Source: Leucoraja ocellata (taxonomy: Eukaryota). From it: DNA of 64,000 nucleotides. How positions within the stretch are numbered: the stretch's first letter is position 1; each line of letters begins with the position of its first letter. The notes beneath the pieces are model-generated. The model was not told the origin of the DNA, ran no database searches, and saw nothing but the letters and a program-made list of their open reading frames with translations. Below are positions 5,328 through 61,700 of this stretch, piece after piece. The stretch covers positions 62,001 through 126,000 of the forward strand of contig JAWMAR010000079.1 in NCBI GenBank assembly GCA_036785375.1, given 5' to 3'. A program made the position numbers and the translations under genes.

Positions 5328-5522
5328 GATAGACACAAAAAGCTGGAGTAACTCAGCGGGACAGGCAGCATCACTGCAGACGTTTCGGGTCGAGATTCGA
5401 GACTCGATCCTCTCCAGAGATGCTGCCTGTCCCGCTGAGTTACTCCAGCTTTTTGTGTCTACGGTTTAAACCAAAGAGCCTATATCTTTGGTTTAAACTA
5501 GTATCTGCAGTACCTTCCAACA
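5328..5522. mobile_element. Fold-back Penelope-type non-autonomous element
   Basis: Inverted arms AGACACAAAAAGCTGGAGTAACTCAGCGGGACAGGCAGCATC / complement; flanking near-duplicate CAACTTATAATAGTA (5313-5327) vs CAACTTATATGAGTA (5523-5537). Confidence 0.75.
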
Positions 5523-5601
5523 CAACTTATATGAGTAACTCTCTTCACCTGGCTCCATCTGTTTTTTTTCCCTGCCTCTGTTTGTCAGTCACCTGCCTCT
5601 A

Positions 5602-55700: not shown

Positions 55701-58700
55701 ATCATTCCAGGCCTTCAGTTTTTTTAACATCATAACAGCCTCCTTTGTCTTTTTGTAGCTCTCAATTTTATCTTCAACCACCAGTGGGAGCTCTGGGATT
55801 TCCTCAATACGGTGACCTGAAGAGGATTGCAACATTGTTATCAGGGCATCCATATCAAACCCCAATTTTAGTTAGAGAGGCAACTCCTGATAGAATAGAA
55901 TGAAGAAAGAAGTTTTGTGCATTTTAGTTAAGGATCTGTGCAGTATTTGCTCTTTTAGGAATCATACAATAATTAAAGCAATTAACTCATGAAGAATGAT
56001 TTGTGCTGATCAAATCTGCATTGTTAGAATATGGAAAGTGCAAACAAACATTCAAGTGGGAAAAGTTAAAGAAAAGAGCAATCGTCACCATGAGGCAAGT
56101 GGACATCAACTGCCTGTAAAAATATGATCCAAGACGCAAGGGCCATTTTTAGCTAGTCTTTATAAGCCCAAATTACCACATTTCCTAAATTCAATATGTC
56201 TTTGTCAACATGGACAGCAGCTGCTCAGAGCTAAATGTTCGTCATGTTTCTGTACCAGCATAATAACAGTAGGCAACTGTTGCTGTGTACAGCATAAGAC
56301 GCAAATTACACCATCATCGTAGCCACTGCCACATTTTGGAAGTAAAATTATTTGCCCAACAGGAATGAAGTTTAAAATGCACTCAAAGGACCCATCTTTA
56401 AAACCATGGTTTGTATAAACAGTAAAATTACCATTAGCAAAATTAAGTTGCTTACCGGCTAATTCTAATAAGCATAAGCCAATTTAATGTTGGTGAGTTT
56501 ACAACCCTACCAACCATATTATTTGGGTTTGTCTATTAATATTAGAACATATCAATTACATTACAGCTGTAATTCTAGAATGACTCACAGCTGGAAAACA
56601 ATTGCACCGACATGGATAACTTTAATTTTATGCTCACTCAGATTGCTCTGGATACAAAATAACCAAATTTTCTTTACAAAATTGGATATCCTTTCTACGA
56701 TGAGTCAACTCTCATTGGTCACTGAGATGAAGCAAAATGGCCTTGCATTTTGTTCAGGATCTTACAGAGGGTGATGGGTGCCAGGAATGTGCTTCCAATG
56801 GTGGTGGTGAAGATATGACAATGGTGTTTAAGTGACTTAGATCGGCTCATGGATGTGCAAAGAATGGAGGGATATTGATGTGCAGACAGAACAGGCTAGT
56901 TTATCTGGGTATCAAGTTTGACACAGACTTTGTTGGACGAAGGGTTTGTTCCCATGCTATACGGGTCTATATTTAAGTACTTTGCTTTTATTTATGCGAC
57001 TCAAGAACGTTTGTTTCTGTACACTCACCTTTTGACATCACCAGAGCAGGGAGAGCAGATGCAGCTAGAGAAGAGCAGATGGCATATCGCTTCTGGGTTA
57101 TATTCACCCGGCGGTGCCAACGCCGCCAAGTCTTGGTGGGAGCAAACATGCGACCACCACGGCACATCTGAGGTTGGGTTAAGGTGCAAACTTTAAATAA
57201 TGGCTGGGAATCCAATTTTGCTCGGACTGAATGCTCTTCATTTCCATGTACCAATTTAATGATAGAAAACAATTGCTGTAGCGCACTGTAAAATGAAAAG
57301 TACATCATAATAATAAAGGAATAACATTAGAGTGGTAAAAGTTAAAGCAAAGAGCAATCATCATCACTATGAGGTAAGTGGGTATCAACTGCATGCAAAA
57401 ATTACATATCCAAGATGCAACAAGTAGGAGGTCATGTTTAGTTGGTCTTGACAAGAAACACAAATTACCCAAGTTCCTCAATTCAAAATATCCATCAACA
57501 TGGCCAGGAGCTGATCAGATCCAAATGTTCGTCATGTACCTGTACCAGCATGATAACAGTAGGCAACTGTTGCTGTGTACAGCATAAGACGCAAATTACA
57601 CCATCATAGCAAGCTGCTGCCACATTTTTAAACAATTAAGGTACTTGAAATGGGATGCAAGCCGTATATTCCAACTTTACTGATACACGGCATTTAAAGA
57701 CGTACTGACTTAACAATGGACATTACAACATCATTTAACCTTACACAATGAAGAGGATACATTTCCAAAGGCACCTTGGCCAGATCGATGAGTACCACCA
57801 CCCCGAACACGGGGAATACGAGCCACAGCTCTGCCTGTACCCCATGACTCAGCACTGGTCTGGTGACCTAAAAACAAAACATAAAATGTTGAGTCAATAC
57901 AAATTCTACTGGATTCACCATATACACTTGTTACTTTCTCCACACAACCCGAACAGTCAAAATAAATTCGACAAAAATACTGTACAGGCCACACCAATGG
58001 AATTGAGCTCTGACTGCTTTGTAGCTATTACCAGTTAAGTGCAAAAGCAATTACCTTAATATAAGATGCAAATAATACTGACCTTTATGATTATGAGAAT
58101 TATATGCATTAAATTTGCAGCACAAGACTTCTCAATCCATTGGTCTTTAATGCTTACTGGCTTTCAGCACATCATACAATATCATGCACTCACATCCTTT
58201 GCCCTCACCTCAATCTTTCACTTCTACCTTCCAAAAGGATCCAGGCCTCAAGAATGCCAGATGGAAATGAATTCCTATTCTACCTGGAATTTCTCCCCAA
58301 ATCTTTATTATTTACTAAAAATGACCTTTGGCTTTGGTTGCCCCCTAATCTGGAACTCTACACTTCATTCTTTCTTTTACATACTCTCAGAATTTCAAAT
58401 ACATCCATCAGGTCAAATAGTACTTAATCCAGATGGATTCCTACTAAAATGCAATCCTCAATCCTAACTAATCAGACACTTAAGAAATTCAGAGCATCTC
58501 AAATCCTTGCCTGATTATTGGCGTTCAATCCATACGTCAGCACAGGTATGCTCGAACCTTCCCCAGCACCACCATAGTGTCATAGAGTAATAGAGTGGAG
58601 ACGGGCCTTTCGGCCCAACTTGCCAACGCCATCCAAAACGTCCTAGCTACACTAGTCCCACCTGCCTGCGCTTAGTCCATATCCTTCCAAACCTGTCCTA

Positions 58701-61700
58701 TCCATGTACAGTGCATTCAGAAAGTATTCAGACCCTTTCACTTTTTCCACATTTTGTTACGTTACAGCCTTATTCTAAAATGGATTGAATTCATTTTTTT
58801 TATCAGCAATCTACACACAATAGCCCATAATAAAATAAGTGAAAACAAGTGTTTAGAAATTTTTGCAAAATAATCAAAAATAAATAACTGAAATATCACA
58901 TTTACATAAGTATTCAGACCCTTTACTCAGTACTTTATTGAGGCACCTTTGGCAGTGATTACAACCTCAAGTCTTCTTGGGTATCACGCTACAAGCTTGG
59001 CACACCTGTATTTGGGTAATTTATCCCATTCTTCTCAGCAGATCTTCTCAAGCTCTGTCAGGTTGGATGGGGAGTGTTGATGCACAGCTATTTTCAGGTC
59101 CCTCCAGAGATGTTCGATCGGGTTCAAGTGGCTCTGGCCGGGCCACTTACGGACCTTCACATACTTGTCACAAAGCCACTCCTGCGTTGTCTTGGACGTG
59201 AGCTTTAGGTCATTGTCCTGTTGGAAGGCAAACATCTGCCCCAGTCCGAGGTCCTGAACGCTCTGGAGCAGGTTTTCATCAAGGATCTCGCTATACTTTG
59301 CTCCGTTCATCTTTACCTCAATCCCGACTGGTCACCCAGTTCCTACTGCTAACATCCCTACAGCATGATGCTGCCACCACCATGCTTCACTGTAGATATG
59401 GTATTGGCCAGGTGATGAGCGGTGCCTGTTTTCCTCCAGACGTGACACTTGGCATTCAGGCCAAAGAGTTCAATCTTGGTTTCACCAGGCCAGGGAATTT
59501 TGTTTAGGTGCCTTTTGGCAAACTCCAAGCGGGCTGTCATGTGCCTTTAACTGAGGAGTGGCTTCTGTCTGGCCACTCTACAATAAAGGCCTGATTGGTG
59601 GAGTGCTGCAGATATAGTTGTCCTTCTGGAAGTTTCTCCCATCTCCACAGAGGAACTCTGGAGCTCTGTCAGAGTGACCATCGGGTTCTTGGTCACCTCC
59701 CTGAATGTGTTAGTAAGTCTCTATCCCAAGGCCCTTCTCCCCCGATTGCTCAGTTTGGCCAGGCTCTATGAAGAGTCCTGGTGGTTTCAAAGTTTTATTT
59801 AAGAATGACGGAGGCCACTGTGCTCTTCGGGACCTGCAATGCTCCAAAAAATGTTTTATACCCTTCCCCAGATCTGTGTCTCAACACAATCCTGTCTCGG
59901 AGGTCTACAGACAATTCCTTCGTCTTCATGGCTTGTTTTTTGCTCTGACATGCACTGTCAACTGTGGGACCTTATATAGACAGGTGTGTGCCTTTCCAAA
60001 TCATGTACAATCAATTTAATTTACCACTTGTAGACTCCTATCAAGTTGTAGAAACATCTCAAGGATAATCAATGGAAACACGATGCACCAAAGCTCAATT
60101 TTGAGAGTCACAGCAAAGGGTCTGAATACTTACGTAAATGTGATATTTTAGTTATTTATTTTTAATTATTTTGCAATAATTACTAAACATCTGTTTTCGC
60201 TTTTATATTATGAGGTATTGTGTGTAGATTGATGATTAAAAAAAATGACTAACCAATTTTAGAATAAGGCTGTAATGTAACAAAATGTGGAAAAAGTGAA
60301 GGGGTCTGAATACTTTCTCAATGCACTGTACCTGTTTAACGGTTTCTTAAATGATGAGATAGTCCCAGCCTCAACTACCTCCTCTGGCAGCTTGTTCCAT
60401 ATCACACCACGACGCACATCATTTTAAATTTGTCTTGGTTCTTAATTCCATCTCATCCAGTGCTATAACAAAGGACTTTCGTCCTTTTATTCAGATATAA
60501 ATCACATCAGTTTTACCACGCCATCCGTTTATTATTCACTATGATTCCAAATTATTTTTATACAGCAGGGGCCTCAGCTTCATTCCACTACAACCCACTT
60601 TTACAAATTGTCTGCCAGATATTATGGTCATCCATCACCTTTACCTCGTGCCCATTTTTTCTGGGAAGAGATCCTCACCCCAAATTATTCATTCTCTTAA
60701 TTTTAGAATTCCTGGTCCACAGCCTGATCTCTAACCATATCTGAAGGTAAACAAAAAATGCTGGAGAAACTCAGTGGATGAGGCAGCAACTATAGGGAAG
60801 GAATAGGCGACGTTTCGGGTCGAGACATCATGACCCCAAATGTCGCCTATTCCTTCTCTCCATAGATGCTGTCTCACCCACTGAGTTTCCCCAGTATTTT
60901 TTGTCTACCTTCGATTTTTCCAACAACTGCAGTTCTTTCTTAAACATTGTCTAATCACATCTAGATATTTTTCTCCCCTCTATCATACCCAGACTAGCCT
61001 ACCACTCTGTTCTTGCAACATGCAGCTCATGCGAGCAACTCCATCTTTGTTACCAAACTTGTTTGAAAACCTCTTCCTTAGATTATACCAAAAAAGTCCA
61101 CCTAATAACATACAGCTTTCTTCCGTTTTCTCCCCAAGATCAACAATCCAAAGTAATTTGTAGACTAGTCATTTTCAGCTTATTCAATAAATACTCTTCT
61201 CTCTTATCTAGTCTCTTCCCATTTAAATCCATAACATATTTGATGTCATTCATTACATTGATCTTCCAGCATCTTGGTCACAACATGGCCATTTCACCAC
61301 AGATCTCAGTTCATTTGCATCACCCCAACTCAGTTTCACCAGATCTGTGTTTAATTCTTCTTTGAACAGTTCTTCAAATCCTGAATGTGTTCAAACATTG
61401 AACAACTTTCACTCCATTCATTCCAAAAGGTATGACCATGTCATCTAATAACACCTTATACTCAAGTGCAACCAAGATGTTTTCCTTTACAATTGATGGG
61501 GATCAACCATGCGTGTTCCAGTTCTCATGCCTTCCCTCAGATATGGAAGATAGGGTACAACCCTCAACTTCCATCATACTAATCAAAGAATGTAACAAGT
61601 TATCCTTTTGAAATTTTTGCCATTAGTATTTCAAAATGACTTAGTTTCCTCCACAACTCCACTTTTCATTCCATCACTGCCAAGTATCACTCCCTGATTT

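Follow-up and report, generated by a model that had tools for sequence, protein, structure and literature searches.

Head-to-head insertions of a Penelope-like element in Leucoraja ocellata: probable formation by two primings, and a G>T change at the palindrome centre

A stretch of 64,000 nucleotides of Leucoraja ocellata DNA (GenBank assembly GCA_036785375.1, contig JAWMAR010000079.1, forward-strand positions 62,001 to 126,000), referred to here as the window and numbered from its first letter, contains a dispersed repeat with a hammerhead ribozyme motif, copies of which stand head to head inside a target site duplication (TSD) or occur as single arms. The repeat is the pseudo-long terminal repeat (pseudo-LTR) and 3' end of a Penelope-like element (PLE) with a reverse transcriptase (RT) and a GIY-YIG endonuclease (EN), and full-length copies are still present in this genome. 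We consider it fairly probable that the units are 5'-truncated insertions of this endonuclease-bearing (EN+) element and that the inverted ones derive from two reverse transcriptions, one per nicked target strand. A preliminary description of the window had proposed a poorly described system; the element class, the hammerhead motif, and the inverted layout have already been published. New are the counts that speak against a single fold-back, the contrast between subfamilies, and the change at the hairpin tip. No description of the present skate family was found in the open literature on Penelope (topics: twin priming, shark/skate, initiator, inversion; Repbase and Dfam were outside the scope).

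Results

Positions in the repeat are counted from the C of the hammerhead CUGA (+1), which places the predicted cleavage site at +28/29. The first sample consisted of the 64-kb window and 1.1 Mb of tiles picked blind to content, with 511 arms; a further 80 kb enlarged it to 1.244 Mb and 534 arms. Because controls passed a permissive TSD search at a high rate (24 of 457 at a score of at least 11, against 110 for real flanks), only units explained from end to end were retained, namely 85 of 146 candidates (37 single and 48 inverted). Junction and nesting counts refer to the 37 inverted units with gaps of at most 22 nt, the 11 of 48 with gaps above 22 nt being excluded. Exact counts of folded and unfolded copies (4,640; 27,329; 205; 24) are genome-wide, and L-numbered loci are individually compared copies.

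The parent element

Longer copies carry the end of an open reading frame (ORF) upstream of the repeat, and ORFs of 1,021-1,264 amino acids were present between pseudo-LTRs in 12/12 loci, all selected for long frames. Pfam analysis of four proteins returned RVT_1 (E 4e-8 to 8e-5) together with a GIY-YIG domain at the C terminus (E 4e-4 to 0.012), with a DKG motif. Against this assignment stand the scores themselves, which were below the curated cut-off for GIY-YIG in 4/4 proteins and for RVT_1 in 3/4; a Pfam search with the 135-amino-acid endonuclease piece alone returned no family, and a PDB sequence search no match. A preliminary tblastn search with the endonuclease part gave 104,519 candidates in the genome. 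Since the ORF end, hammerhead, and tail recur upstream of the ORF start in a partial tandem (L211, L213, L216, L217, L219, and L222), the window repeat is identified as a pseudo-LTR. The Penelope origin that had been suggested for it is thus borne out, both by the ORF end in longer copies and by the RT and GIY-YIG ORF. Between RT and GIY-YIG lies a three-cysteine, zinc-finger-like linker; linkers of this type are common to the Neptune and Nematis clades (PMC8557442), and the cysteines point to a putative affiliation with one of the two. In L152 and L157, the ORF also holds a long low-complexity insert rich in Pro, Ala, and Asp, with short peptide repeats, upstream of RT. Family copies are frequently nested in or adjoin other family copies (L212, L217, L218, and L140).

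The preliminary description had further seen a separate non-coding class resembling miniature inverted-repeat transposable elements (MITEs). That class finds no support, as ORF-bearing insertions of several kilobases (L131 and L137) show the identical inverted-plus-tail layout and the junctions differ per unit. MITEs as such were rejected on the unequal ends, the TSDs of 9-20 bp, and unit lengths of 101-800 bp, compared with equal terminal inverted repeats, a fixed short TSD, and uniform length.

Two ends and two probable primings

Among neighbouring arms less than 400 bp apart, 116 of 201 were head to head, 28 tail to tail, and 30 + 27 direct. TSDs reaching the score threshold of 8 flanked 49 of 127 head-to-head pairs and 1 of 300 shuffled flank pairs; the two excesses together indicate that the inverted layout is not a product of chance. 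TSDs measured 9-20 bp (median 14) in the 85 units. A fixed duplication length, as for a DNA transposon, was looked for, and variable lengths were found instead; the range of 13-15 bp given earlier holds for the five inverted units of the window described below, not for the family. The 3' ends of the arms were bimodal (~+85-100 and +120-127; 511 arms), with arms starting from either of two fixed sites (~+93 and ~+127) that are separated by 33 nt. One long (tailed) and one short (tailless) end were combined in 44/48 TSD-bounded inverted units, the short end was also that of 20/37 single copies, and the same arrangement of inversion plus tail extended to kilobase-long, ORF-bearing units.

Of the 37 resolved units, 14 had a tailless arm that extended 5' of the tailed one by at least 9 nt, 8 had the tailed arm further out by as much, and the two were about equal in 15; non-nested arms also occurred among kilobase-long units (L131). 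The second arm of a fold-back cannot hold sequence 5' of the first arm, and the 14 units are therefore not products of a single cDNA fold-back, which favors two primings. A lizard PLE provides precedents in vitro: two adjacent internal RT start sites define the tail of PAc Poseidon, and its protein cleaves and extends both strands (PMC11167929).

The preliminary description had instead proposed a fold-back during reverse transcription. In such a scheme, a single cDNA would turn on a short palindrome and self-prime the second arm, and self-priming has been put forward for head-to-head PLE palindromes (PMC3846280). Junctions that lie on palindromes (the 4,640 exact ones at a 15-nt palindrome, with other overlaps of 9 and 15 nt), private variants common to both arms of a unit, and the 15/37 symmetric and 8/37 nested units all agree with this proposal. 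It is contradicted by the 14/37 units in which the tailless arm passes the tailed one on the 5' side, non-nested in the wrong direction for a general mechanism, and by second arms that end at the fixed site of the single tailless copies, not randomly. We judge fold-back unlikely as the general route, with genuine fold-back possible for the symmetric subset. Three considerations weigh in turn against two primings: 23/37 resolved units fit a single-cDNA fold-back equally well; the 14 non-nested units come from an automated count that includes at least one product of misalignment (C25 26626); and the priming steps, likely as they appear, are read from insertion ends, not from intermediates.

The 9-20 bp TSD is left by a staggered cut. 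With two primings, the element endonuclease would nick both target strands; priming would start at the tail site (~+127) from one nick and at the short site (~+93) from its counterpart, and short palindromes (at 0 or at +11..+25) or short fillers would then connect the two cDNA ends head to head. After insertion, perfect palindromes would likely extrude hairpins, flipping the centre and fixing G>T at the loop. Ribozyme cleavage would not be required.

The stem-II junction and its centre

Members of the subfamily of the inverted unit at 34809 have a native 15-nt palindrome at +11..+25, with 4,640 exact folded junctions and 27,329 unfolded arms genome-wide. The other main subfamily showed 24 copies folded at +11..+25 and 205 folded at its own stem II, against ~40,000 unfolded arms, a rough figure scaled from 14-16 in the sample by a procedure that overshoots the folded count 3.6-fold. 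A better stem II without the 15-nt palindrome thus folds about 30 times less often, which speaks against the ribozyme hairpin as such as the determinant of fold-back; from this contrast between subfamilies, microhomology and not the ribozyme fold sets the stem-II junction.

The junction may have formed by deletion after insertion instead of at landing. The central hairpin would then be lost from a unit with both arms at the front edge of the hammerhead (-8..+9), the deletion running from one copy of the 15-nt palindrome to the other. The dependence on the native palindrome in the counts above (4,640 against 27,329; 205 + 24 against ~40,000), the uneven distribution of folded units along the genome, and the changes that centres undergo after insertion suit a deletion. 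Youngest-subfamily units with identical arms are already folded (L284, L285, and L288), and among the duplicated loci none was seen to keep the spacer in one member and lack it in the other; we hold this route to be rather improbable. On C1, the first 16.8 Mb contained 2 folded and 100 unfolded copies (genome ratio 0.17; p = 3e-5), and most of those listed lay in the last 9 Mb.

The 4,640 folded centres comprised 2,189 parental ones, 1,725 with TCC/GGA (37%), and 374 with GCA/TGC. The same T occurred in 263 unfolded arms, compared with G in 27,329 (1%), and in 0/69 unselected loci. Eight duplicate pairs were compared: L234 and L235, 1.3% apart, differ at the tip, and the centre is flipped in two of the eight pairs, one being L252/L255 and one of the flips spanning only 377 bp. 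T-centred units had more TSD mismatches (13/225 bases) than others (2/294; p = 8e-4). From the duplicated loci and the TSD decay, the G>T change at the tip likely arises after insertion, and a post-insertion hotspot fits best. The spacers of inverted repeats are hypermutable, the loop more so than the flank and up to 90-fold for some (PMC5737083). Arm-to-arm and tail divergence were similar between centre classes, which counts against a late change at the tip. Raw reads at 34860-34978 showed no tip variant among the matches listed (40 of 110). The tip change may also be an assembly effect. GNA-triloop stability is kept as a lead: the GGA and GCA variants fit, but the ViennaRNA energies are equal, and the closing pair here is the weaker G:C (PMC3201870).

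The 1,725 exact copies with one non-parental centre could also descend from a non-coding palindromic master, a MITE-like retro-unit with a TCC centre that is transcribed and re-inserted whole. Reads from the RNA runs do span the folded junction, and arms that differ at one diagnostic site in 7/37 scored units agree with it as well. TCC, however, stands on several subfamily backgrounds, in 5/24 junctions of the other subfamily, and in both orientations relative to the tail (14:6); it differs between duplicates of one insertion, and junctions are mostly unique per unit. The tip T in 63 folded loci likewise came on several subfamily backgrounds and in both orientations, that is, as one recurrent junction unlinked to subfamily background. 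A master unit is accordingly very unlikely.

The diagnostic site just mentioned is a subfamily G/C position near the short end, and the units whose two arms differ there include L234, L245, L250, L268, L290, and L297 (set L231-L303). Either two templates or a conversion halting before the end would explain the difference.

5' ends of the copies and the hammerhead motif

Of the 37 single copies, 27 began at the front edge of the hammerhead and 6 upstream of it; 4 began downstream of it and none within +26..+32. The enrichment over +10..+60 was significant (p = 2e-12). Arms of inverted units ended there in 32/74 cases. Since a TSD or the partner arm abuts those ends, the pile-up is not an alignment edge effect. 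Random breakpoints were looked for, and the breakpoints proved non-random near the ribozyme motif. The sequence TCAGTCT occupied -4..+2 in 43/65 long copies, and YYANWYY, the initiator consensus, was found in 51/65. In full-length copies, hammerhead and tail are also present on the 5' side, before the ORF begins, which makes short run-off products possible. A tentative explanation, to which we give somewhat less than even weight, is that the stop marks the RNA 5' end at the initiator-like TCAGTCT, with priming on the 5' pseudo-LTR copy of the RNA.

Against this explanation, the same spot resembles a YAG splice acceptor (60/65) and is a 9-nt palindrome, and of the 15 copies bearing the ORF start only 2 begin at the front edge; 9 extend past it on the upstream side (among these L219, read by eye after automated misalignment), and 4 start downstream. 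A fixed RNA 5' end would need read-through or template jumps for those 13. Spliced-type junctions were absent from the 1.244 Mb and from the RNA joints listed. RNA reads on the pseudo-LTR/ORF junction, taken from polyA and single-cell runs, represented both strands and numerous genomic copies, with no start or end peak and no splice joint among the matches listed.

The presence of a minimal hammerhead motif was confirmed, its sequence agreeing with the published PLE motif (PMC4209133); self-cleavage would be at +28/29. Rfam gave no hammerhead match at E values up to 1 and only hairpin look-alikes below the gathering score, while folding predicted another structure; helix I of the motif has at most 2 bp. 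The preliminary description had considered the cleavage end as a point where reverse transcription folds back; in this reading, hammerhead cleavage would create an RNA end where copying halts or reverses. The core motif is conserved, and an automated count found an excess of inverted arm ends at +27..+31 (7/18; p = 0.009). By eye, 4 of those 7 were mis-aligned (decayed or deleted arms), leaving 3 compatible. In addition, 0/37 single copies end at +26..+32, sequence 5' of the cut is retained in most copies, and the hammerhead, with its helix I of at most 2 bp, is not the predicted fold. Hammerhead mutants of the lizard element leave insertion in vitro unchanged (PMC11167929). Cleavage as the source of the stop is thus highly improbable. 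In one unit, block 1093-1319 of C60 (L056), sense filler in the junction spans +1 to +28 and ends at the predicted cleavage site, a single case. With the 3 compatible arm ends, this filler counts on the other side, and the cleavage end may play a minor part.

Inverted units and single arms of the window

All five insertions reported to share one layout are present, head to head and TSD-flanked; one arm ends at ~+126 with the tail and the other at ~+86 to +96 without it. The unit at 5328..5522 begins with a tailless minus-strand arm (5328-5395, +95 to +12, without +27..+41), followed by a short filler and a tailed plus-strand arm (~5407-5522) that starts at ~+39 and holds a 23-bp insertion; its TSD (5313-5327/5523-5537) has 15 bp with 2 mismatches. 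The young unit at 34809..34993 (tailed arm minus, tailless arm plus) has perfect 75-bp arms, a perfect 15-bp TSD (34794-34808/34994-35008), and a junction on the native palindrome at +11..+25, with a parental centre at 34919. At 42534..42712, the tailed minus-strand arm reaches -1 (42666) and has a decayed hammerhead core, the tailless plus-strand arm starts at +42, and the TSD has 15 bp with 2 mismatches. The older, longer unit at 45455..45865 has a 14-bp TSD with 1 mismatch; both its arms pass the hammerhead into a pyrimidine-rich upstream region, the right one to ~-130. The unit at 60743..60949 combines a tailless minus-strand arm to +11, a short filler, and a tailed plus-strand arm from ~+17, and its TSD (13 bp, 2 mismatches) is weak, scoring 7 against the threshold of 8.

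Inversion in or beside the hammerhead-like hairpin had been reported for the four short copies. The non-random position near the motif stands and a single shared point does not: the junctions lie at +12/~+39 (5328), inside +11..+25 (34809), at -1/+42 (42534), and at +11/+17 (60743), and the predicted cleavage site is the junction in none of them.

The single-arm copies, put at about ten, are real and more numerous, with 12 listed here and 22 arms in total by BLAST in the window. Only the tailless arm at 7256..7351 (plus strand, starting at -2) passed the TSD test, with a 12-bp TSD and 1 mismatch. In the arm at 19737..19826 (plus), which no TSD abuts, the minimal hammerhead core is undamaged, with CUGA at 19741 and the predicted cut following 19768. 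Also on the plus strand are a tailed arm at 10626..10783 reaching ~-27, a tailless arm at 26327..26425 starting at -2, and an older arm at 28535..28657 reaching ~-35; another older arm lies at 1053..1120 (minus). Further decayed arms were located at 1492-1605 and 47781-47857 (plus) and at 11268-11330, 12619-12688, 21722-21805, and 51970-52110 (minus).

Outside the family, SNORD16 (two genes) and SNORD18 (four genes) exceed the Rfam gathering score at 53782-57611 (minus strand) and mark the DNA as vertebrate; such a cluster lies in RPL4 introns. Repeats of 24 and 27 nt stand in tandem at 4719-5234, open in three frames. An inverted pair of a different repeat (58703-58927 and 60112-60334; 223 bp, 89% identity) is related to 18883-19342 and 25681-26135 and probably represents two independent copies.

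Discussion

The origin of the tandem and inverted structures of PLEs has been called an open question (PMC8557442, PMC11167929). The fullest account of the present family would combine twin priming from two fixed positions on the RNA, cDNAs that, where the 5' pseudo-LTR of the RNA is used, both run off at the transcription start and leave stumps as a genome-wide, strong-stop-like record, and palindromes that act as reporters of a G>T hotspot; taken as a whole it is doubtful. If true, thousands of identical germline palindromes would report a G>T hotspot at the hairpin tip that exceeds background by tens of times. Natural insertion records number in the tens of thousands in this family, which also has ORFs that look intact; with them, twin priming, self-priming, and a 5' stop could be separated by counting and in vitro. 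Its 4,640 near-identical palindromes also allow germline mutation at hairpin loops to be tested in a controlled way.

In L1 twin priming, a second nick primes a second cDNA, producing an inversion inside one TSD-bounded insertion, and the internal priming sites vary. In the skate family, by contrast, the second site does not vary, and the two arms cover overlapping sequence.

Closer likeness is found among EN+ PLEs. Pen2a_Av shares the ORF with RT and C-terminal GIY-YIG and the partial tandems (PMC3846280; scheme in PMC8557442, Fig. 2), and EN+ elements are described with an inverted 5'-truncated copy, a one-sided tail of 30-40 bp, variable TSDs, palindromes at the inverted junction, and an initiator-like motif in the pseudo-LTR (PMC3846280, PMC8557442), as here. 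Unlike Pen2a_Av, the present family consists mostly of 100-250 bp units, is extremely numerous, and has its 5' ends piled at one site; its TSDs are also longer (median 14, against 8-10 in the published EN+ PLEs; PMC3846280). PAc Poseidon resembles it in the two internal RT starts that define the tail, the cutting and extension of both strands, and the dispensable hammerhead, but belongs to a different clade, and inverted products and 5' stops are absent from the parts of its description considered here (PMC11167929).

The minimal type I hammerheads of metazoan PLEs show the same conserved core, extra base before stem II, and palindromic minimal helix III, and occur mostly as solo dispersed copies, with opposite-strand pairs mentioned; the present motif, known from its sequence, differs in a helix I of at most 2 bp (PMC4209133). 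Junctions and TSDs are not mapped in the parts of that description considered here. The loop mutation has its parallel in the hypermutable spacers of inverted repeats, where the published data are somatic and from cancer (PMC5737083), whereas here a specific transversion is fixed in the germline.

Tandem arrays of retrozymes were considered and rejected for the sample, direct neighbours (30 + 27) showing no excess over tail-to-tail ones (28). Non-LTR retrozymes are nevertheless similar in being non-coding, pseudo-LTR-derived, and hammerhead-bearing, with many monomers, and solo pseudo-LTR derivatives have been treated as retrozyme monomers; they form head-to-tail tandems, whereas the units described here stand head to head between TSDs (bioRxiv 10.64898/2026.07.22.740005).

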